From: Eubacteriaceae bacterium UBA1433
Lineage (GTDB): Bacteria; Bacillota; Clostridia; Eubacteriales; UBA1433
DNA: 58,804 nucleotides
Reading direction: 5' to 3'
NCBI GenBank assembly: GCA_002329295.1
Contig: DCTT01000026.1
Span: 348,054-406,857 of the forward strand
Numbering within the stretch: the stretch's first letter is position 1; every line of letters begins with the position of its first letter. This document shows positions 12,906 through 58,481 of the stretch, piece after piece. The translations under genes and the position numbers were made by a program. The notes under the pieces were generated by a model. The model saw only the letters and a program-made list of their open reading frames with translations. It was not told where the DNA came from and made no database searches.

Positions 12906-15900
12906 CAGCATCCCCCGCCGTACCCACAATAATGTTTTCGCCCATATTAATAAAACATAAGATACCTATTGTATTCCTTGTTTTTGTAATCGCTTCATAG
13001 GCCTTTTGATAATATCGCAATTGTGTCCTATAAGGCGCAATGCGCTCTTTTCTGTTTTCCGGTCGGTAATAATCAGTCTTATAATCTATGATATAGTCTA
13101 CACCTTGATAGGTTGCCACACAATCTATAATTCCTTGAATATATACATGCTCCCCGCTGTCCAAGCACATATTTTCATAAACTTCTTTTGCGTTTGCCCG
13201 ATAATAAAATTCCACTTCACGCTGTACACGCTCTGCCTGCAAGATAATTTGCCCCGCCTCGGAAGTCCAAAAATCCGCCAACTTATCTGTTTCGATTGCC
13301 TGCGCTTCCTGCTTGCTGATAATCTTCTCTGCAATCAAGCGATTCAGATATTCTTTGATGATTTCCTCATACCGGTTTGTTTTTTTCAGCATTTCCAAAT
13401 CAATGGTTTCCATAAGGTAATGGACGATCAAGCCTCTGCGCATCGGCAAAATATTGTTTTCTTCCTCAGCAGCAAAGTCCGCATATTTTTTTACAAAGGG
13501 CTGTCCGGCTTGTTTCAACTCGCTTACGGTTATTTTTTGCGCAATTTGCGTACTTGCCTCATAAGGATAACGCCAAAGCAGACGGCGTATTTCTTCCTTT
13601 GTTAAAGGTTGCGCGTCCTGGTTTAAATAATCCAAAACGGCTTTTCTTTCCATTTGCATCTCGTCTTTTTCCTGCAACAACAAATCACTGTGCAACGTAA
13701 CGTCAAAAACGCTTTTGTCTTTGGACACACTTTCTTGCATGGCCGCACTCATAATCCAATCCAAAAACGTAACGGTCCTTTGCACTTGATAGGTACTGAT
13801 CTTTTCTGACCATGACGCCATTTTTTTCTCTGCCGTTTTCTCAGACAGCAATCCGGTGATAATCAGCCGCTCTTCCGCACGGCTCAGCGCCACATACAGC
13901 AACCGCATTTGCTCCGAGGTTATGTCATTTTTCACTGCTTCCTTTGCGGCAATCTTTGCAAGGCTGTCGCATTTATATCCGTTTTCCACATCACAGTAGG
14001 TAATGCCCACGCCCATGTGCTTATGCAAAATAAGCTCTTTTCGCAAGTCCGCTCTGTTGAATCGTTTCGATGTCCTGCCCAAAATCACCACAGGAAACTC
14101 CAGCCCTTTGCTTTTGTGAATGCTCATCATGCGAACCGCATTTTGCCTTTGGATAAAAAGCGACGGCGCGCCGATATCCGTTTGCGCAGCCTTGACCTTT
14201 TCCACAAATCGAATAAAACCGAACACTCCCTGCATGGTTCCTTTTTCATATTCTCGGGCAATGTGCAACAGAGAATGCAAGTTTTCGCTCCGCAGCCTGC
14301 CCCCCTCCATCATGGCAACATAGTCGCACAAACCGGTTTCGTCATAAATATCCAATAACAAATCATAGATCCCGATATGTTTGCTTTTTTCTCTGCAGGA
14401 TTCAATAAATCGATAGAGAGCATGTAATTTTTCGCTAAGCGCATCGGTAAAACATCGTCGATATTCATCAATGGCCTCATAAAAGAAATGTTGTTTTGTA
14501 TGTTGCCGAATTTGCAACAATTCCGCCAAGTCGAAACCAAACAACAGCGAACGCATAACGGCCAACAGCGCAATATCTTGCTGGTCGTTGTCTATGACCG
14601 TCAAAAGATTCATCACCAAATCCACTTCCATATTGTCAAAGTAGCCCTTGCCCGCATCAAAAAACAACGGGATTTTTTGTTGCCTGAATATTTCGACATA
14701 ACCTGCCGCATCCGTCGAAGGACTGGCTAACAGCACCACAATATCCCCGTAGCGAATTTTGCGCATTTTTTGTTCTTTTTTGTCAAAAATTTCTTGTTGC
14801 AGTAAGCTTTTAATGGTGGTCGCTGTCCCTAAAGCCTCCTTTTGTGCACTTTCCAACTCTGCAAAAACATCTTCGTCCTCCGCAGCATCTTGCTTATCGC
14901 TGCAAAAAAGGTGAATCTCCGTTTTAACGGTTGCCTCCAAATCTTTTCTGGCAAAAACCAACTTGGCATGTTCGTCATAATCCACGCCACCCGTCTGTTT
15001 TCGCATAATGGGCTCAAAAACAGCATTGATCCCATTGATGACACTTTGCGCACTTCTGAAATTTTGGTTGAGATGAATCACTTCGCCGTTTTCTTCTTTT
15101 TGTTGAAACCGCTCATATTTTTCACGGAAGATATCCGCGTCCGCCAGTCGAAAACGATAGATGCTCTGTTTGATATCGCCTACCATAAACAAGTTGCTTC
15201 CCGTACTCAGGTTTTTCAATATTGCTTCCTGCAACATGCTGATATCTTGATATTCATCAATAAAGATGTACTCATACTGGTCTTTGATTTCCCGGGAAAT
15301 GTTTTCGTCTTTTAAAATTTGAAGACACAACTGCTCGCAATCGTGAAAAGTAATCGCTTTTTTCTTCGCTTTGCGCTTTTTATATTCCTCTGCAAAGCTT
15401 TGAGTCATTTCTTTGAGGCATTTTAGCACATTGAGAAGTTTTGCATTTTCCTTCTCTGCCTTTTGAACGCTGTAAGTTCCCCAAAGGCACAGTTCTTTTT
15501 TTAGAATATCTCTGGCGGCTTCACGATATCTTTTGACTTGCTCCTTTGTTTGTATATCGGTTTCTTTCGGAAAGCGCAGCGTTGTGGTGCCACGGTTCAC
15601 TGCCAGATCATATTCTCTTTGAAAGCTGTCCCATCCTCTTTGCAGCGCATCGGCAAGGTCCTGAAATTGTCGTTGTTCGCCAAGAAGAATCTCTTGCTTC
15701 TCTTTCGGCAAAACCGGTTCGGCCCATTCCACCGCTCTGCTTTGCAAATGCAACGCTTCGTCGAGCAATTGCTCAACCGTCACTGTCAAAAATTGCACCC
15801 ATTTGCTTTTTGTCAAATCCTTTGCTTTGTCATAATACTCTATTTCGTCCTGCAGCCAATCCAATCCTTCCGGCCTGCTCATGGCGTAATCATATATTTC

Positions 15901-25477: not shown

Positions 25478-26844
25478 AACGTCCCTTTTACAAGGTTTTT
25501 AATCCACTTTTTTGTCTTATAACGCGAAATCAAAAAAATCAGTTTTATTCCATGCTCGGCAAAAGTCAAAGCCATCACCCAATGAATCGGCAAGCGCAAA
25601 ACCGCTGCCGCAAAAAATGCTACCGGAACAGCATATCCCCAAATCGTAATCAATTCCAGAACCATACAAAATTTTGTGTCGCCGCCCGCTCTCAAAATCC
25701 CGATTAACAGCAGATAACTGAGCATAGAAAGCGGAATATACGCTCCCAACACAAAAAGAATGTTGTAAATGGATTGTATTGTTGCCACTTCCAGATCAAA
25801 GAATCCCACCACGGGTTTCCTCAACAAAATCAATAATGAACCCATGACGATTCCGAAAATCAACATCACCATGATATATTTTTGCGCATATTTTTCGGTA
25901 AGCGCATAATTTTCTCTACCCATTTCATTGCCCAACATCACTGCACAAGCATTACCTATTCCGAAAAAGGCTGCTTCAAAAACCCCTAAAACCGTCATAG
26001 ACACTTGCACGGCCGCCACAGCACTCGCCCCTAACAGCCCATAGGCAACATAAGTAATGGTCATTCCCAAAGACCATATCATTTCGTTCATCATGACCGG
26101 CAAGGCTACTTTCAATTTTTGTCGCAGCATCTTTTTTGTCCAGCAAAACAAATCCTTCGCTTGAAAAGCAAGGATATTGTTTTTTCTCTTTGTCAAATAA
26201 AGCAGAAAACAAATACATTCAACGACCCGCGCCACCAACGTGGCTCGTGCCGCTCCCTCCACGCCCATGGGTTCAAAGCCCAGGTGACCGAAAATCCAAA
26301 TATAGTTCAATAGCGTGTTGATTAAAACACAGTTTGCATTGATTAAAAGCGGCATTTTTACATTGCCGACAGATCGCATGGTAAAGGAAACCGCAAAAGA
26401 AACCGCCGTAAAAAAATAACTGTACGCCACAATGCGAAGATAACGACTCCCCAATTCAATGACCGCTGTATCTTTGATAAAAAATGAAATCAATTTCCCA
26501 GGAAATGTGCTTGCCGCCACCAAAAAAACGAACGCCACCCCCGCACCTAAGACCAACTCCATTCCCAACATGTTTTTCACATTCTTGAGATCTTTGTTGC
26601 CCCAATATTGCGCAGTAAATACGCTCATACCGCTATAAATGCCAAAGATGATGATTGCGAAGAAAAAATAAACACGATTGCCGATTCCAACCGCTGCCAC
26701 CGCCGTTTCGCCATAAGAGCCGATCATAACGGTATCGATCATATTGAGCGAAAGCGAAATCAAATTCTGCAGCGCAATCGGTATAGCCAACGCCAACATC
26801 ACGGAATAAAATGTTTTTTTGTCATAATACAAAGAAGATTGCAT
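25474..26844 (-). CDS. MATE family efflux transporter
   Basis: About 12 TM segments; [33 protein letters not shown] repeats. Confidence 0.93.
26493..26506. promoter_or_regulatory. NBS-like site (1 mismatch) inside the MATE gene
   Basis: ATTTCCCAGGAAAT versus consensus ATTTCCCGGGAAAT. Confidence 0.6.
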
Positions 26845-27466: not shown

Positions 27467-27482
27467 TGTTTCACGTGAAACA
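27467..27482. promoter_or_regulatory. parS centromere site 1
   Basis: Perfect palindrome TGTTTCACGTGAAACA. Confidence 0.95.
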
Positions 27483-27492
27483 TTTTGTTTCC

Positions 27493-27508
27493 TGTTTCAC
27501 GTGAAACA
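27493..27508. promoter_or_regulatory. parS centromere site 2
   Basis: Perfect palindrome TGTTTCACGTGAAACA, 10 bp from site 1. Confidence 0.95.
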
Positions 27509-27549: not shown

Positions 27550-27578
27550 AGACACATCGCAAAATAGCGGAGGAAATG

Positions 27579-28355
27579 ATGGCAAAGATTTATTGCGTTT
27601 TTAACCAAAAAGGCGGCGTCGGAAAAACCGCCACTACTACCAATCTGGGAGCGGGCATTGCAAAATTAGGCAAAAAAGTACTCGTTGTAGATGCCGATTC
27701 ACAAGGCAATCTTACTACAGGACTCAATATAAAGGCTGACAGAGGCGTCCACACGCTCTACGATGTGTTGTGCGGCCAGTTGGACGTTCAAAGAGCGGTG
27801 TTTCCCACCGCTTATACCAATTTAATGCTGATTCCCGCCAACGCTCGGTTGGCAGGGGCCGAGATAGAGTTGGTCGGTGTCCCTCAGCGTGAACTGGTAT
27901 TGAAAAAAAACCTGTCTTCTCTGCGCGATTCTTTTGATTATATTTTTATCGATTGCCCGCCTTCTTTGGGGTTGATTTCCATCAACTCTTTGGCTGCTTC
28001 TGACGGCATTATCGTACCTATTCAATGCGAGTATTACGCCTTGGAAGGTGTAAGCAACTTAATTAACACCATCAATCTTGTAAAGCGTGGGTTAAACCCT
28101 TCTTTGGATATTGTCGGGATTGTTTTAACCATGTATGACAGTCGCACAAACCTGTCATTACAAGTTGCCGCCGAAGTAAAGCGCTATTTTCGTGAAAAAG
28201 TGTTCAATACCATCATTCCCCGCAATGTAAAAATTGCCGAATCTCCCAGCTTTGGCAAACCGGTCATTTACTACGATGAATCTTCTTCCGGCGCCAAGGC
28301 CTACATGTCTTTGGCACAAGAATTGTTGGAAGGGGAACATGCTTATGAAACCTAA
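27579..28355 (+). CDS. parA: ParA/Soj ATPase
   Basis: NQKGGVGKTATT deviant Walker A, DADSQGN, DCPPSLG, QCEYYALEG, IPRNVKIAESPS. Confidence 0.97.
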   Translation: MAKIYCVFNQKGGVGKTATTTNLGAGIAKLGKKVLVVDADSQGNLTTGLNIKADRGVHTLYDVLCGQLDVQRAVFPTAYTNLMLIPANARLAGAEIELVGVPQRELVLKKNLSSLRDSFDYIFIDCPPSLGLISINSLAASDGIIVPIQCEYYALEGVSNLINTINLVKRGLNPSLDIVGIVLTMYDSRTNLSLQVAAEVKRYFREKVFNTIIPRNVKIAESPSFGKPVIYYDESSSGAKAYMSLAQELLEGEHAYET

Positions 28356-29208
28356 TTCTGTTTTAGGCAAAGGCTTGGATGCGCTGATTCCTTATTATGC
28401 CCACGAAACCGAAATGGATGAGGTCAGCGCCGTCCAAGAGTTGCCCATAGAAAAAATAAAACCCAATCCGAACCAACCCCGAAAAATATTTACAGAAGAC
28501 ACTTTGGCGGAATTAAGCCAATCAATTCAAGCTCACGGTATTCTTCAGCCTTTGATTGTCGTGGATCGCGACGACGAAACCTATATGATTGTTGCAGGAG
28601 AGCGTCGTTGGCGTGCCGCTTCCATGGCAAACCTCAAAACCGTACCTGTGATTGTTCGTTCTTACAGCGACGAAGAAGTGCTGGCTATTTCTTTGGTGGA
28701 AAATTTGCAACGCGAAAATTTACATGATTTAGAAAAAGCCTCTACGTACCAAATGTTAATTGATCAATTTCAACTCACCCACGAATCCCTGGCTGCAACA
28801 CTGGGCATCAGCCGGGCAGCAGTAACCAACACGCTGCGCCTTTTAAGTCTATCACAGGAAGAACAAGACGCATTGCTCAAAGAACAAATCACCGCCGGTC
28901 ACGCCCGCGCATTGCTTTCATTGCCTTTGGGCCCATTGCGTACCAAAGCGCTCAACACTATGATGAAAAAACGCCTTTCTGTGCGAGATGCAGAAACTTT
29001 GGTGCGCAATTTAAGCAAACCCGCTGCCGTTGCTCCTTTAACCAAAGAAAGCAACCATGCGGCGCTGGAGACAGAGTTGTCCGCCCTTCTGGGTCGCAAG
29101 GTGCTCATTCACCCCCGTGGCAAACGCGGCAACATTCTTTTAGAATATTATGACGCAAACGATAGAGAACACTTGATTGACGCATTAAAAAAACTGGCTG
29201 AAGGCTAA
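28345..29208 (+). CDS. parB: ParB/Spo0J CTP-dependent clamp
   Basis: LGKGLDAL, PNQPRK, IVAGERRWRA, ENLQRE; HTH specificity residues R/T/S/G (parS type). Start ATG 28345 overlaps the parA end. Confidence 0.97.
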   Translation: MKPNSVLGKGLDALIPYYAHETEMDEVSAVQELPIEKIKPNPNQPRKIFTEDTLAELSQSIQAHGILQPLIVVDRDDETYMIVAGERRWRAASMANLKTVPVIVRSYSDEEVLAISLVENLQRENLHDLEKASTYQMLIDQFQLTHESLAATLGISRAAVTNTLRLLSLSQEEQDALLKEQITAGHARALLSLPLGPLRTKALNTMMKKRLSVRDAETLVRNLSKPAAVAPLTKESNHAALETELSALLGRKVLIHPRGKRGNILLEYYDANDREHLIDALKKLAEG

Positions 29209-29232: not shown

Positions 29233-30330
29233 ATGACGAAAAAAAACAAAACTGCTTCCATGTTATCACTCGCTTTAATCGGAAATATTTTTTATTATAT
29301 ATTGTGCGCCATATTGTTCCAGCTTTCGCCTGCATCTAAGGCGGTCTACATCTTGTTTTTTATATGTTCCATTCTATTATGGTTTGGCATTGGCGCATAT
29401 TATGGAACATATGCTCGAAAAACCAATATTGGCAAACAATTCATTTTTGCACTGGTGACCATGGTTCCGATTCTTTTATTTTTCATAACTTATGTTGTGC
29501 TCACCCGTTTATCGAGCTCTGTAACAGGCAATCCCTGGCTTTTATTTTATACTTTCGGTGCACCGCTCTTGTTTTGGTTGAAACCTGCAACATTTTTGCT
29601 GCATTCTTTTAATATTTCTTTCCCGCTTTTTGCTGCAGGCTACATTCTTTTGTTATTGTTGACCACTTTTGCCGGCACGGCTCTTTTTGCCTTGAAGCAA
29701 CACAAAGAAACGTTTTTGCCTATTGAATCGGAAGAAATACCGGAAAAAGATACCAGTGTCCCCGCTGACGATTCCCTGCAAAATATCCCGGAAGTTGCAG
29801 AGCCTTTCGAAAACGAAGTACCGCAAAAAACCGCGATGCTAAGCCAAGAAGATACGAAAGCTGCAGAAGAAGAGCGTCAGGATATTTTGCGTTTTATCAA
29901 AGATACAAACAATGCAGAAGATATGACGGGCGCTGAAAACGTCATTGAGCAGCAATATGAAGAAAGCCAATACCGCATTGACGGGCAAGGAGACACATAC
30001 AAAACCATGCCTATGCCCACCATTGACGAACTGTATGCCGAAGTCCTCAGTCAAAAAGATTTGGAACCCGAAGACGAAACCGCCCTCTACATGCAGGAAA
30101 TCATCACCGATATGCATTTTGTGGCAGAATACGAATTAACGGATGAATCTGTCACAGAACAGGAAACGGCAGAAAGCATTGTCGATGACACGGCTTCCTC
30201 ATCACAGGCAACGACCCTCGTTGAAGAAGAATCCACCGACCGAACCAACACAAATGGTGCAGACAACGCAAAAGCCCATTCTGAAATCTCTTTGCCTGAA
30301 CAAAAAGAAAACGACGCTGACAACTCCTGA
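29233..30330 (+). CDS. Hypothetical membrane protein: 4-5 TM N-terminus and long acidic low-complexity C-terminus
   Basis: AAGGAG RBS; 365-aa ORF; hydrophobic first ~150 aa, D/E-rich remainder; no family recognised. Confidence 0.8.
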   Translation: MTKKNKTASMLSLALIGNIFYYILCAILFQLSPASKAVYILFFICSILLWFGIGAYYGTYARKTNIGKQFIFALVTMVPILLFFITYVVLTRLSSSVTGNPWLLFYTFGAPLLFWLKPATFLLHSFNISFPLFAAGYILLLLLTTFAGTALFALKQHKETFLPIESEEIPEKDTSVPADDSLQNIPEVAEPFENEVPQKTAMLSQEDTKAAEEERQDILRFIKDTNNAEDMTGAENVIEQQYEESQYRIDGQGDTYKTMPMPTIDELYAEVLSQKDLEPEDETALYMQEIITDMHFVAEYELTDESVTEQETAESIVDDTASSSQATTLVEEESTDRTNTNGADNAKAHSEISLPEQKENDADNS

Positions 30331-33476: not shown

Positions 33477-33486
33477 ATTATGAAAG

Positions 33487-33527
33487 AAAAAGCTGCGGAC
33501 ATTTTTGTTCGCGGCTTTTTTTCTTTT
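33487..33527. terminator. Bidirectional intrinsic terminator after rpsR
   Basis: aaaaagctgcggac-attttt-gttcgcggcttttttt. Confidence 0.85.
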
Positions 33528-34083
33528 ATCGGAGAACTTCGTGCGCCAATACAGTATACATACGCATATCGACCATAAGTTCCGTCTTTACGCAACATCC
33601 CTTGACGTTTGTTGCCTTCATAACGTATGCCGCATTTTTCCATCACTATGCCGGAGGCCTTATTGCCTACATCGTGCGCGCCCTCAATGCGATGATACCC
33701 CATATGATGACACAATTATTTCAACACAACGCCAAAGGCCTCTGTCATTATGCCCTAACCCCAACAAGCACTGCCGGTTGCAAATCCGACCTCTGCCGTC
33801 AAAAATTTCCCCTGAGCAAATCTCACCCCAACAGAACCGATAACTTCATTGGTTTTTTCAGCACAATTGCCCAATAATAGGTATCCTCTTTGTCATAAGC
33901 ACTGATTCAGCTTTACAGAAGCTGTCGACGTCCTTCTACATTCTTATGCGGGTGCCGGGCGAAAACCCGCGCGACTGCCGCATCCTTTGCCCAATGTTGA
34001 AACATCTGTAACGCATCCTTCATGACGAACCTGCGCAGTATTAACCGGTTGGCCTCGAGTTGTTTTGTGCCTAAATGTTGCAT
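33526..34083 (-). pseudogene. RimJ/RimL-type GNAT acetyltransferase pseudogene
   Basis: GGAGG RBS and ATG at 34083. Reconstructed MQHLGTKQLEANRLILRRF...YWAIV...IGSVG...WG*GIMTEA...N.ASG.VMEKCG..YEG. Four in-frame stops and two frameshifts; 558 nt in total. Confidence 0.9.
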
Positions 34084-34145
34084 CTGTCTGCCTCCAAAAG
34101 AACGGGAGGCACTATACCATATTCTCCGTCACTTGCGCCGTTTTT

Positions 34146-34182
34146 ATTTCCTGGGAAATGTTTCCCGTCTTTCCCGGGAAAA
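34146..34182. promoter_or_regulatory. Tandem NBS-like palindromes upstream of the rplI promoter
   Basis: ATTTCCTGGGAAAT (34146-34159, 13/14) and CTTTCCCGGGAAAA (34169-34182, 12/14; perfect 12-bp core), 23-bp pitch. Confidence 0.65.
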
Positions 34183-34200
34183 GATTATTTTTTGAATTTC

Positions 34201-51783: not shown

Positions 51784-51875
51784 TCAGCAAACAAACAAAT
51801 ATACCAAAAGAACATGTTATTCAAAAGAAGATTCGAGAGAAAATTCAAAAAAATGTTTTAAAGGAGGTAAATTTG

Positions 51876-53984
51876 ATGGACATTCGCAAAGTAATGAAAC
51901 CGAGAAGCATTGCCGTTGTCGGCGTCAGCGACAGAAAAGGCAGCTTCGGCAACTACGCCGCACAAAACGCCTTGCGCGGTAAGCTGGGTGAAAAGGTGTA
52001 CTTTGTTCACCCGAAACGGCAAGAACTGTTGGGCAAAAAGTGTTATCCCTGTATCAGCGATTTGCCCGAGGCAGTGGACTGTGTGGTTTTGTGTACACCC
52101 AGTTCCACGATTATTCCGCTAATGGAGGAAGCAGGAAAAAAAGGAATCGGCGGAGCAGTGATCTTTGCCAGCGGGTTTTCGGAAGAAAGGGACGAAGCGG
52201 GAAAGAAATTGGAAAAACGCTTGATAGAAGTGGCAAAAACCTATGATATGGCTGTAATCGGGCCCAATTGCCTGGGATTGATGAATAATGTGGATCAGGT
52301 GATGATGTGGGGGCTGGACACCAAATTTGAATTTAACGACAATACAGGTGTGGGAGTGGTGGGGCAAAGCGGCTTTATCATTAAACATTTGTCCGAGGCG
52401 GGTTTTGGTATGTCGTATATGGCTTCGACGGGAAACGGAAACATTGTGACGATTGAGGATGTGTTGTTGTTCTATGCTCAGGAAGATGCAGTAAGCGTAA
52501 TCGCCGTGTATTTGGAAGGCATTAAAAAACCGGAGATATTTGAAAACGCATTGAAAACGGCGGCAGAAAAACGAAAGCCTTTCATTGTGCTGAAAAGCGG
52601 AAGATCAAAAAAAGGAGCGGCGGCGACAGCTTCTCATACCGGAAACCTGGCCGGAGACAGTGCGACTTATGATGCGATTTTTGAAAAATTCGGCGTGGTG
52701 GTGGCCGAAGACTTTGCAGATCTGATTGCTTTGACAAGGATGTTTACCGTACTCAAAGGCACATTGGCGGAAAAAGGCACTTTGGCAAGCCTCAACTTAT
52801 CCGGCGGTGAAACAGCAGTTTGTGCCGACATATGTGAAAAATACGGATTGGTGCATCCGGATTTTGATGCCAATGTAAAAAAGGCAGTGATGGAGTTGCT
52901 GCCGCCTTTTGCTACGCCGAACAATCCTTTAGATGCTACCACGGCGCTGATGTATAATGTGGAAGGAAATAAAAAAATCGTCAAAGCGCTGTTGGAGAGT
53001 GATGAGATTGGCATCATTACATTGGGGATCAATATCGGTCTGGGCAAACATCTGGTAGTCGAAAATCAAATCAACGCGGCCTGTGCGGCGGTAGAAGAAT
53101 CTTCCAACAAAAAACCGATTTTTGCCGTATCTTCTTTTGAAGGTACGCGCAATCGCGACTATTTGGAACAGTTGGAACGTCATGGCATCGTCATGCCTTC
53201 CGGCGGTGAAAAAGCCTACAGACAAATTGCACAATTGGTGAAGTTTTCACAATATGATCCTTCGAAACGTACCCTTTCGTTTGCCTATCCTTCCGTAGAC
53301 AACGCTGCAAAACAAACGGTGGCGCTCAGTGAATATGACAGCAAAGAAGCCATCAAAGAAGCGGGAATCACGATTCCGAAACAAGCGGTGGTGACGACGA
53401 AAGAGGAGTTGAAAACCGTTTTGGAAAAAGAGTTTTCCTTTCCCGTGGTTTTAAAAGTCAGTTCAGCGGATATTTTACACAAAACCGATGCGGGAGGTGT
53501 AAAACTCTCCATTCAATCACAACAGGAAGCGCTGCAAGCTTTTGATGAAATCATGGTTGCCTGCAAAAATTATATGCCAGATGCGGTGATTGATGGCGTG
53601 CTCGTGCAGGAAATGGCGCCGAAGGGAATTGAGATCATTATCGGCATCAGCAATGATGCGTTGTTTGGACCGATGGTTTTGGTAGGACTCGGCGGGGTGT
53701 TTGTGGAAATATTTAAAGATGTAGCGCTTTATCCGGCGCCGATGAACAAAGACGAGGCATTGGGAATGCTCAAAAAACTCAAGGCCTATAAACTGTTGAC
53801 CGGATACAGAGGCAGCAAACCTGCCGATGTTGACGCTTTAGCAGAGACCATTGTCAAAATCAGCGATTATGCGGCAAAGCACAGAGATACTCTCAAAGAA
53901 TTGGATCTGAACCCTGTTTTTGTCTATGAAGAAGGCAAAGGTCTCAGTGTTGTGGATGCGTTGTTGATTCAGTATCAATCCTAA
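51876..53984 (+). CDS. ADP-forming acyl/acetate-CoA ligase, alpha-beta fusion
   Basis: CoA-binding PRSIAVVG..., FASGFSE, GPNCLG, SHTGNLAG phospho-His, NNPLD, ATP-grasp HKTDAGGV, GPMVLVGLGGVFVE, ELDLNP; AAGGAGGT RBS. Confidence 0.92.
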   Translation: MDIRKVMKPRSIAVVGVSDRKGSFGNYAAQNALRGKLGEKVYFVHPKRQELLGKKCYPCISDLPEAVDCVVLCTPSSTIIPLMEEAGKKGIGGAVIFASGFSEERDEAGKKLEKRLIEVAKTYDMAVIGPNCLGLMNNVDQVMMWGLDTKFEFNDNTGVGVVGQSGFIIKHLSEAGFGMSYMASTGNGNIVTIEDVLLFYAQEDAVSVIAVYLEGIKKPEIFENALKTAAEKRKPFIVLKSGRSKKGAAATASHTGNLAGDSATYDAIFEKFGVVVAEDFADLIALTRMFTVLKGTLAEKGTLASLNLSGGETAVCADICEKYGLVHPDFDANVKKAVMELLPPFATPNNPLDATTALMYNVEGNKKIVKALLESDEIGIITLGINIGLGKHLVVENQINAACAAVEESSNKKPIFAVSSFEGTRNRDYLEQLERHGIVMPSGGEKAYRQIAQLVKFSQYDPSKRTLSFAYPSVDNAAKQTVALSEYDSKEAIKEAGITIPKQAVVTTKEELKTVLEKEFSFPVVLKVSSADILHKTDAGGVKLSIQSQQEALQAFDEIMVACKNYMPDAVIDGVLVQEMAPKGIEIIIGISNDALFGPMVLVGLGGVFVEIFKDVALYPAPMNKDEALGMLKKLKAYKLLTGYRGSKPADVDALAETIVKISDYAAKHRDTLKELDLNPVFVYEEGKGLSVVDALLIQYQS

Positions 53985-55507: not shown

Positions 55508-57406
55508 ATGGGAACGAGAAAAACAGAGCCGTACGACATTGTGATCATCGGTGCAGGGCATGCAGGGTGTGAGGCGGCGCTTGCCGCAGCGCGAAAGGGA
55601 AAAAATACGCTGTTGTTGACGATGAATTTAGATTCGGTAGCGTTACTACCCTGCAATCCTTCCATTGGCGGAACGGGCAAAGGGCATTTGGTGCGAGAAA
55701 TTGACGCCTTGGGCGGAGAAATGGGCAAAAATATTGATAAAGCCTTTATTCAAAGCAGGATGCTCAACACCGCCAAAGGACATGCCGTGCGTTCGCTTCG
55801 TGCACAGGCGGATAAAAAAAGATATCAGAGCGAAATGAAACAGGTGTTGGAAAATCAGCAAAATCTCACACTGATGCAGCAAGAGGCGGAAAAGTTATTG
55901 GTTGAAGAGGGGATTGTGTGCGGTGTAATAACAAAAACCGGCAGAATTTTCTCGGCAGCAGCGGTGATTGTGGCTTCGGGCACCTATTTAAACGGAAAAA
56001 TCATTATCGGTGAAACGTCTTACACCAGCGGGCCAAACGGCATGAGCGCTTCCGAGAAGTTATCAGAAAACCTGCTGTCTCACGGCTTGCGTCTGATGCG
56101 TCTGAAAACAGGCACGCCCGCTCGCATCAATAAACGCAGCGTGGATTTTTCAAAAATGCAACGCCAGGACGGTGATGAAGTCATCGAACCGTTTTCGTTT
56201 GAAAACGAATTTGATTCCGCTCCGCAAGTGCCTTGTTATTTAACATATACCAACGAAGAGACGAAACGCATTATTCTTGAAAATTTGCACCGTGCGCCAA
56301 TGTACAGCGGTATGATTGAAGGGGTAGGCGTGCGTTATTGCCCCAGCATTGAAGATAAAATCGTTCGCTTTGCGGATAAAGAGAAACACCAGTTGTTTAT
56401 TGAGCCCGAGGGGCTTGACACCAACGAACTTTATGTGCAGGGAATGTCGTCATCGTTGCCTGAAGATGTGCAAGAGGCTATGATGCACACGGTGCCGGGA
56501 TTGGAAAAGGCCGAGATTATGCGCAGCGCCTATGCCATTGAATATGATGCCATTGAAGCGCATCAACTGACCTTGTCTTTGGAAACAAAACAAATCAAAG
56601 GACTGTTTATGGCGGGGCAGATTAACGGCAGCTCCGGCTATGAAGAAGCGGCGGCTCAAGGGCTGATTGCAGGCATCAATGCAGTGAATTTTATGGATGG
56701 GAAAGCGCCGTTAATTTTGGATCGCAGTCAGGCGTATATCGGGGTGCTCATTGATGATTTGGTTACAAAAGGAACGGCGGAGCCTTATCGCATGATGACT
56801 TCGCGAGTGGAATATCGTTTGCTGTTGCGTCAGGACAACGCTGATTTGCGTTTGACGGAAATAGGATATGAACAAGGACTGATCAGTGAAGAAAGATATC
56901 AAAAGTTTTTGCAGAAAAAACAAGAGATTCAACAAGAATTGCAGCGACTGAAAAGCACAAAAATCAGCAAAGAGACGGCAAATGCGTTTTTGCAAACCGT
57001 TTTTTCTTCGCCGGTTTCAGAAAGTATTTCATTATATGAATTGCTAAAAAGGCCGGAGATAACGTATAATGATAGTAGCGTGATTGATCCGAGCAGAAAG
57101 CCTTTGGAAAAAAAGATCACGCAGCAGGTGGAAATATCCATTCAATATGAAGGATACATCAGAAAACAGCAGGAACAAGTAGCGCGGTTTTTAAAGATGG
57201 AAGAAAAAAAGATTGATGAAGATATTGACTATCAGCAAATGAAAAATCTGAGATTGGAAGCCAGAGAAAAATTAAACAAAATTCGTCCGACGTCGTTGGG
57301 ACAAGCCTCACGCATTACAGGGGTATCCCCGGCGGATATATCGGCACTGATGATTTATATGGAAAAAATGAAGCAGCAAAAGTTGCAGGGAGAAAAAAAC
57401 AAATGA
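55508..57406 (+). CDS. mnmG: tRNA U34 modification enzyme MnmG (GidA)
   Basis: [43 protein letters not shown]. Confidence 0.99.
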
Positions 57407-58185
57407 ATGGAAAAATAAACAAAACCGAAATGATTCCCGTGGAGTGGATCATTCCCAACAAAAATCAACCTCGAAAACATTTTGACGAAACCAGCCTAAA
57501 CGAGTTGGCTGAATCCATCGCCAAAGTGGGAATCATCCAGCCGCTTACAGTGAAACATGCAGGAAACGGGCGCTTTGACTTAATTGCCGGCGAGCGGCGG
57601 TTGCGGGCGGCACAGCTGGTCGGATTGCGCCGTGTGCCTTGTATCATCTTTGAGGCGAGCGAAGAAGATGCAGCCTTTTTAAGCATGATTGAAAACGTGC
57701 AGCGAGAAGATTTGAATTTTGTTGAAGAAGCGACAGGGTACAAACAGCTGCTTTCAACGTACCGACTCACCCAGGAGCAATTATCGGAAATCATCGGCAA
57801 AAAACAATCGACCATTGCCAACAAATTACGCATTTTAAATTTAAACGAAGACGTGCTGGCTTTGTTGCAGAAAAACAATCTTACAGAGCGGCATGCGCGG
57901 GCATTGTTGAAGCTGCCTGTAAATGAGCGCATGTCTGCAGCAAGAAGAATTGTTCGCCGCGGGCTCAATGTGCGCCAGACCGAAGAAATGATTGATGCGA
58001 TAAACGGTAAAGCCGCCATTAATCCCGCAAAGCGCCGTGTTACCAATATTTTTGATAAACGCATCTATGTCAATACCATTAAAAAAGCCTTTTCGGACAT
58101 CAAGAAAACAGGGGTTCGTGCGCTTTATGCCGAACAGGAAGATGGCGAAAACATCACGATTACCATTGTCATACCGAAAAAATAA
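57403..58185 (+). CDS. noc: Noc-like ParB-family protein
   Basis: [47 protein letters not shown] (Noc-type Q/K/R residues); located after mnmG. Confidence 0.9.
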
Positions 58186-58237: not shown

Positions 58238-58254
58238 AGAGCACATGTTCATAA

Positions 58255-58481
58255 GGCAATGACAAAGACGGGCAAAGACAAAGCATGACAGAGAAGCGGG
58301 GACAGGTGCAATCCGCCCATGAGTTGCTTTGCCGGATCACTTTGGAGCCTGGCGCCTGATTTTCAACAAGGCGCTGCGCTTGTCAGCGTTAAAACAGTCA
58401 AGTGGGTCTGGCGATTGCCAAGACCAATTTGGGTGGTACCGCGGAATATTCTCCGTCCCTTTCAGGGGCGGCTATTTTTTT
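58255..58481 (+). promoter_or_regulatory. Ile T-box riboswitch
   Basis: AGAGA..GGTGCAA stem-I motifs, AUC specifier at 58336-58338, T-box AATTTGGGTGGTACCGCG at 58426-58443, terminator ccgtccct/aggggcgg plus U-tract. Confidence 0.92.

Follow-up and report, generated by a model that had tools for sequence, protein, structure and literature searches.

The window analyzed here, a stretch of 58,804 nucleotides from Eubacteriaceae bacterium UBA1433 (contig DCTT01000026.1, positions 348,054 to 406,857 of the forward strand), carries at positions 57403 to 58185 a gene for a protein of 260 amino acids (aa) related to the nucleoid occlusion factor Noc. This open reading frame (ORF) is shown to encode a true, full-length, and conserved protein of the Noc subfamily that lacks the membrane helix. 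It is an uncharacterized, headless variant of the known protein Noc and not a new system: as judged from sequence comparisons, Noc regularly takes the headless form in several orders of clostridia, and the trait varies across the class. Adams et al. (2015; PMC4331003) described the Noc N terminus as extremely conserved and predicted an amphipathic helix in all homologues that they examined. This generality is contradicted by several orders of the Clostridia, including Clostridium and Clostridioides, whose Noc would be unable to work in this way and whose DNA sites are kept. Our literature search turned up no report in which the missing helix of clostridial Noc is noted or studied.

The translation start of the window Noc is secure, because none of the 58 open in-frame codons 5' of its ATG is an ATG, GTG, or TTG and because the orthologues from five genomes (G001, G005, G006, G010, and G028) in a 30-genome sample of the same order have an in-frame stop codon zero to two codons 5' of the equivalent ATG. 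A Shine-Dalgarno-like motif precedes the ATG of each orthologue, and the same start is used in the relatives. Only 9 to 10 polar residues stand ahead of the IPV strand (beta-1) of the ParB N-terminal domain, and they include no aromatic and just two bulky hydrophobic residues. The helical hydrophobic moment of this tail is 0.24, or 0.30 when 10 residues extending into the first strand are scored, compared to 0.56 for the B. subtilis helix. Likewise, the AlphaFold2 model of the protein (mean predicted local distance difference test score, 84.3) shows coil at residues 1 to 4 and strand beta-1 at residues 5 to 12, with no N-terminal helix, and ends in a disordered linker (residues 204 to 215) followed by a small C-terminal domain. 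In the alignment, residue 8 pairs with chain residue 28 of Geobacillus Noc 7nfu, so approximately 20 N-terminal residues, comprising helices alpha-1 and alpha-2, are absent. Residue 9 pairs with residue 5 of the 7ng0 chain, a construct truncated by 26 residues, and, going by this alignment, the window Noc amounts to a naturally occurring counterpart of the crystallographers' truncation. The initial annotation of this DNA had described a Noc-type protein without the membrane-binding helix, with a short N terminus and no earlier start, and these observations are borne out by the data. In one close relative, the called reading frame of 198 aa (P0015) joins the C terminus of mnmG to noc, the stop codon of mnmG apparently having been lost or shifted out of frame; this protein is cut off, probably at a contig end.

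Membership in the Noc subfamily is apparent along the whole protein. Pfam matches cover ParB_N at residues 8 to 100 (4.3e-30) and HTH_ParB at residues 102 to 200, and the alignment columns of Q22, R24, G63, E64, R65, R66, E97, N98, and R101 are invariant across 105 homologues. The NCBIfam Noc model TIGR04285, which does not cover the segment of the membrane-targeting helix, is matched with 293.6 bits over positions 3 to 255 of 255. The same model gives 228.9 bits for the ParB encoded in the window, over positions 2 to 206 only, so that the C-terminal third of the model stays unmatched. The closest solved structures are those of Geobacillus thermoleovorans Noc (7ng0 and 7nfu), and a Bacillus-type Noc (P0163, which starts MKDHFSKIFG) is 43% identical, aligned from its residue 19 through the C-terminal domain. 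Two features of a chromosomal ParB are missing: the window Noc has Q135 and R163 instead of R and G and carries no ParA-interaction motif of the LGKGL type, and the ParB at 28345 has both.

The residues that select the DNA site were defined by the mutational scan of Jalal et al. (2020; PMC7383237), in which Q173 and R201 (Caulobacter numbering) switch specificity toward the Noc-binding site (NBS). In that study, positions 179 and 184 provide permissive phosphate contacts when occupied by K or R, approximately 91% of the NBS-specific variants carry one of these two residues at either position, and the residues of NBS-specific Noc are Q173, K179, K184, and R201. The C. difficile protein was among the four Noc proteins tested there by chromatin immunoprecipitation in E. 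coli, and the authors reported that NBS specificity is maintained throughout the family (PMC7383237 with its supplement). In the family alignment, the corresponding residues of the window Noc are Q135, K141, N146, and R163, with GERR intact. A direct reading of the ParB at 28345 to 29208 (from GISRAAVTNTLRLLSL...TAGHARAL) gives R, T, S, and G at these positions, and GERR is present as well. These are the two signatures that had been read from the sequence at the outset, and they hold. Among 148 database representatives at 50% identity, the signatures QKKR, QKRR, and QKNR occur 54, 51, and 15 times, respectively. With Q and R at the switching positions and K at one of the permissive positions, QKNR is predicted to bind NBS by the rules of the mutational scan, and the window Noc is accordingly predicted to read this site.

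Both kinds of site are found in the genome of the window (1.6 Mb in 27 contigs). Perfect parS sites occur exactly twice in the whole genome, both in the window (Table 1). The NBS 14-mer ATTTCCCGGGAAAT occurs six times with no more than one mismatch, against 0.71 expected from a third-order Markov model (P = 1e-4), and three of these sites fall within the window, against 0.02 expected. When all 16,384 palindromes of 14 bp are ranked, NBS stands 8th and parS 14th. A variant palindrome as the recognized sequence was tried with TTTC-NNNN-GAAA cores and across all 16,384 palindromes, and none was better than NBS. Five of the six NBS sites fall in the interval from -33 to +80 kb relative to dnaA; under uniform placement, at least five of six sites would fall within 80 kb on either side of dnaA with a probability of about 5e-5. 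Those in the window bracket the parS pair, at -12, -1, and +6.6 kb from it. Clustering of this kind is also seen in two congeners, where three of four sites (G002) and three of three sites (G003) are located within 43 kb of noc.

The nearest relative, G001, shares a local DNA identity of 72 to 84% with the window genome and retains three of the six sites: the exact site in the window, a site on contig C3, and the near-consensus site at rplI-dnaB. The others have turned over. The rplI-dnaB site lies close to a match to a strong promoter (TTGATA, a spacer of 17 nt, and TATAAT). Together with the parS pair and the R..G and Q..R signatures, these clustered and partly conserved NBS sites support, at the level of sequence, the earlier suggestion that two orthogonal pairs of clamp and site coexist here. 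In the same region, the approximately 700 bp after rpsR (33480 to 34190) lack a long plus-strand ORF and have only short ones on the minus strand. They end in a terminator-like hairpin (34161 to 34181) that overlaps an NBS-like sequence with two mismatches, and they may represent a decayed gene or a noncoding RNA.

Table 1. Features of the noc gene, its candidate sites, and the surrounding origin region (positions in the window unless a contig is given).
Feature	Position	Strand	Remarks
noc-type gene, 260 aa	57403..58185	+	ATG overlaps the mnmG stop codon (ATGA)
Noc N-terminal tail (10 residues)	57403..57432	+	Polar, basic, no aromatics, too short for an amphipathic helix
ParB N-terminal (CTP-binding) domain of Noc	57424..57702	+	QPR 22-24; GERR 63-66 (57589-57600); ENVQRE 97-102
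ParB-type helix-turn-helix (HTH) DNA-binding domain of Noc	57706..58002	+	Q135 57805-57807; K141 57823-57825; N146 57838-57840; R163 57889-57891
Noc-type C-terminal domain	58048..58182	+	One helix (219-235) and two strands; matches the end of TIGR04285 and a Bacillus-type Noc
Exact NBS 14-mer ATTTCCCGGGAAAT	15287..15300		Inside a 1198-aa ORF; identical in G001, flanks about 72-78% identical
NBS-like site ATTTCCCAGGAAAT, one mismatch	26493..26506		1 kb upstream of the parS pair
NBS-like site ATTTCCTGGGAAAT, one mismatch	34146..34159		In front of the rplI-dnaB promoter, 42 nt from its -35 element
Two perfect parS 16-mers TGTTTCACGTGAAACA	27467..27508 (at 27467 and 27493)		26 bp apart, in the soj promoter region, upstream of soj
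soj (ParA) and parB	27576..29208	+	parB with R-T-S-G and an N-terminal LGKGL motif; 28 kb from noc, with dnaA in between
Membrane protein, 365 aa (ORF 29233)	29233-30330	+	Follows parB; N-terminal membrane domain of about 160 aa, no Pfam family
dnaA	47775-49241	-	About 8 kb from noc
mnmG	55508..57406	+	Directly upstream of noc, translationally coupled; no rsmG between
T-box leader	58250-58463		After noc; followed by an aminoacyl-tRNA synthetase gene running off the window end
rsmG	Contig C22:3783-4421		On a separate contig from noc

To relate NBS to Noc beyond the order, a class-wide sample of 150 genomes was divided into 91 with a Noc-grade match to TIGR04285 and 59 without. Genomes with Noc carry 1.83 NBS sites per Mb and none of them has zero sites, whereas those without Noc carry 0.52 per Mb and 33 of them have zero. 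By rank test, the difference in density gives a P value of 1e-14 across genomes and 4e-7 across families. Within the eight families that contain both kinds of genome, members lacking Noc almost always have zero NBS sites. This link between NBS and Noc extends to headless Nocs, since the headless families f1, f12, and f31 tally 2 to 3 sites per Mb.

A Noc orthologue is present in 24 of the 30 relatives, spread over four families, and all 24 have short, polar N termini; no Noc was found in any of the six genomes of family f2, which belongs to the same order. The top 120 matches in the database tell the same story. Apart from three fragments, they measure 255 to 281 aa, and nearly all start 5 to 11 residues before the IPV/IPI strand, P0034 and P0089 having longer called starts. 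Many of these matches are named "nucleoid occlusion protein" by NCBI, in Clostridium, Haloimpatiens, Tepidibacter, Lutispora, and Thermosediminibacter. The Clostridium protein P0041 is headless (259 aa, MQKDVKYISI...), as are the Nocs of Peptostreptococcaceae among the matches listed, including that of Clostridioides mangenotii (MEEKRVIEIAV...); C. difficile Noc itself was not recovered in the database searches, in contrast to that of its congener C. mangenotii. With all 24 orthologues of the order headless, and likewise the Clostridium and Peptostreptococcaceae proteins among the best 120 matches of two database searches, the idea of an undescribed system specific to this genome, raised in the initial annotation, falls away.

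It would equally be wrong to call all Clostridia headless. Families f23, f34, f25, f8, f27, f48, and f60 have extensions of 13 to 26 residues that are hydrophobic and basic in character, exemplified among the 30 top-scoring Nocs of the class-wide sample by MSMFRSS..., MEGFFSSGKNK..., MIATKFRFPG..., and MLESKLRFLRR.... Across the 148 representatives, the N termini range from none at all to clearly Bacillus-like. Scoring by hydrophobic moment did not separate them cleanly and was dropped as a classifier, and N-terminal states were assigned by extension length and aromatic content instead. In a FastTree phylogeny of 141 sequences, Noc is monophyletic with respect to ParB (support of 98) and the inner branches are weak. 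The tree implies at least 15 changes between the headless and the aromatic N terminus, marking this end of Noc as evolutionarily labile, and it places the window Noc in a nested rather than a basal position. Used as a test of whether the headless state is ancestral or derived by loss, the tree with its weak inner branches does not settle the direction. The notion that this protein represents an ancestral pre-occlusion Noc accordingly finds no support in it.

The window corresponds to the replication-origin region, with gyrA, gyrB, recF, dnaN, dnaA, yidC, jag, an acyl-CoA synthetase-like ORF, mnmE, and mnmG. Garcia et al. (2021; PMC8136486) inferred noc to be part of the origin gene cluster of the Firmicutes ancestor. 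Here, the cluster mnmG-rsmG-noc-soj-parB is broken up, with mnmG and noc adjoining, rsmG elsewhere, and soj-parB 28 kb away. The synthetase-like ORF (51873 to 53984, plus strand) is inserted between jag and mnmE in an otherwise conserved gene order; it encodes an ADP-forming type of 703 aa with CoA-binding, succinyl-CoA-ligase-like, and ATP-grasp domains.

MinD and Spo0A gave no match above the cut-offs in the window genome and in G001 (1.6 to 1.7 Mb), and both are present in the congeners G002, G003, and G005 (1.9 to 2.3 Mb). DivIVA gave no match in the seven genomes checked, the first two included. It thus looks as if the Min system and sporulation were lost recently within a single genus, and the host of the window is probably non-sporulating. 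The noc gene and conserved NBS sites have been kept through this genome reduction, as the two smaller genomes lost MinD and Spo0A yet retain both. Noc thus persists in a bacterium that has a reduced genome, has no Min system, and probably does not sporulate, and its sites are clustered near the origin. This raises the question of what Noc does when it makes no membrane contact and whether occlusion by tethering is a later addition.

On balance, our analysis points to the window Noc probably being a CTP (cytidine triphosphate)-dependent clamp that is loaded at origin-proximal NBS and does not bind the membrane by the known route. The protein would load at palindromes of the type ATTTCCCGGGAAAT, close into a CTP-dependent clamp, and spread locally, as does B. 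subtilis Noc without residues 1 to 10 in vitro; that truncated protein binds CTP, self-engages on NBS as the wild type does, and does not bind liposomes (Jalal et al. 2021; PMC8429893). A few nucleoprotein complexes would be built close to the origin, beside the ParB-parS complex, which is the most likely arrangement because in this genus good sites are few, are located about 80 kb or less from oriC, and flank the single parS cluster. DNA would not be tethered to the membrane in the manner of B. subtilis. The initial annotation had held that the protein cannot occlude division by the known route, and such occlusion indeed appears unlikely, given the missing helix and the failure of truncated B. 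subtilis Noc to bind liposomes (PMC8429893). Candidate outputs are organization of the origin domain, a boundary for ParB or SMC, control of replication, and control of division through another partner. Origin-region organization or an interplay with ParB and SMC is favored over classical occlusion, because the layout of the NBS sites is closer to a second centromere-like array than to the scatter over the whole chromosome described for B. subtilis.

In a more far-reaching reading, which we consider less likely than not, headless Noc would be a membrane-independent, origin-proximal CTP clamp with loading sites bracketing parS that organizes or insulates the origin domain, for instance by bounding ParB spreading or SMC loading, or that tunes replication initiation. 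Membrane tethering for nucleoid occlusion might then be a lineage-specific addition to an older and more general Noc function.

Several findings weigh against the proposal of an origin-proximal clamp reading NBS. The protein scores just below the TIGR04285 cut-off (293.6 versus 315 bits); its same-genus orthologues score 299 to 304 bits, and Clostridium P0041 passes with 325.6 bits. The window Noc also has N at position 146, where most Nocs have K or R. NBS sites are few in the genome. A seeming pair of sites at 34146 and 34169 was discarded, the second having two mismatches, not being kept in G001, and forming part of the terminator-like hairpin. Moreover, the Noc-less family f2 contains 36 NBS-like sites in 19.7 Mb (approximately 1.8 per Mb), all round the chromosome. 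A control with the reversed pattern, which had given 10 sites order-wide compared to 224 NBS-like sites, hence understates the background, and raw NBS counts within the order are weak evidence. In its place, we used the third-order Markov expectation, the clustering of sites by position, their conservation at orthologous places, and the class-wide contrast of genomes with and without Noc. Finally, the tail is basic (K4 and K7), and many copies of it in a spread complex could confer weak membrane affinity, or a partner could provide the tether.

As regards f2, exact or one-mismatch NBS sites lie approximately 10 to 12 kb from parB at G019:C1:4024384, G011:C4:1173863, and G027:C35:80439, and at G015:C1:1186 such a site lies about 10 kb from parB across the start of a single-contig record. 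They could be relics of a lost Noc or sites for something else.

The most serious rival to the origin-proximal clamp holds that the protein is still a membrane-tethering occlusion factor, acting through many copies of its basic tail, through another surface, or through a partner such as the four-transmembrane ORF 29233. We regard this as unlikely, while taking it seriously. With MinD and DivIVA missing, a safeguard of the division site would be useful to the cell, and the tails of Noc are consistently basic within family f1. The tail itself, lacking aromatics and with its low hydrophobic moment, speaks against this rival, and NBS sites confined to the origin fit a chromosome-wide occlusion poorly. 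ORF 29233, which had been put forward earlier as the membrane partner, has a membrane domain with apparently about four hydrophobic segments and an acidic C-terminal tail specific to the genus. The coding sequence of this domain immediately follows parB in 21 of 25 genomes with Noc, that of the window included, and in none of the six Noc-less f2 genomes. This co-occurrence hangs on a single Noc-less family, and at the same place Clostridium has an unrelated protein of about 165 aa with a single transmembrane segment. The gene stays with parB even though noc is 28 kb away, and synteny with parB is its only tie to noc that we found, which makes for a weak case as a partner, and it was set aside as such.

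In a further alternative, which we consider improbable, the protein would serve as a site-specific transcriptional regulator or roadblock at a few origin-proximal promoters, such as that of the replicative helicase operon rplI-dnaB, in the manner of the ParB-family clamp KorB. The position of one site just upstream of the strong rplI-dnaB promoter match, the retention of that site in G001, and the small number of sites per genome are consistent with such a role. On the other hand, the other conserved sites are inside coding regions, the sites of G002 and G003 are at different genes, and our literature search found no such role of Noc. An artefact of annotation or assembly (a 5'-truncated gene, a pseudogene, or a mis-called start) is already refuted and can be given next to no weight: the sole point in its favor is that the protein is shorter than Bacillus-type Noc P0163 (283 aa), against which stand the same start in 24 orthologues with ribosome-binding sites and upstream stops, four member sequences of identical protein on 52 contigs, and a full-length protein with all conserved motifs and a confident fold.

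Compared to the characterized Nocs (YyaA) of B. subtilis, G. thermoleovorans, and Staphylococcus aureus (7nfu, 7ng0, 7ol9, and 6y93), the window Noc shares the GERR and ENxQRE motifs, the Q/R type of HTH, and the Noc C-terminal domain. Its gene likewise lies downstream of mnmG near oriC, in a genome with NBS palindromes. It differs from them in lacking alpha-1 and alpha-2 (approximately 20 residues), in carrying N rather than K at the second of the permissive positions, in the separation of noc from rsmG and soj-parB, and in belonging to an organism without a Min system. In addition, its genome has about six good NBS sites gathered near oriC, in contrast to those of B. subtilis, which are described as scattered around the chromosome (PMC8429893). 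The protein begins almost where Geobacillus Noc without residues 1 to 26 begins (7ng0, from which the C-terminal domain was also removed). However, whereas the laboratory truncations are engineered, fail to bind liposomes, and show impaired occlusion (PMC8429893), the headless form is a conserved natural form in whole orders.

The nearest parallels are the clostridial Nocs of Clostridium, Clostridioides, Romboutsia, and Tepidibacter (256 to 267 aa), which are headless as well and carry QKKR, QKRR, or QKNR. Named clostridial entries among the best matches are 46 to 51% identical to the window Noc. Unlike in the window, noc of Clostridium is part of an intact mnmG-rsmG-noc-soj-parB cluster, and those proteins pass the TIGR04285 cut-off. 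Finally, the window Noc resembles chromosomal ParB/Spo0J in its fold, CTP-clamp motifs, and origin-proximal sites. However, it differs from ParB/Spo0J in having Q/R rather than R/G, no LG(K/R)GL motif, and a different C-terminal domain, and the genome has a ParB-parS system of its own.

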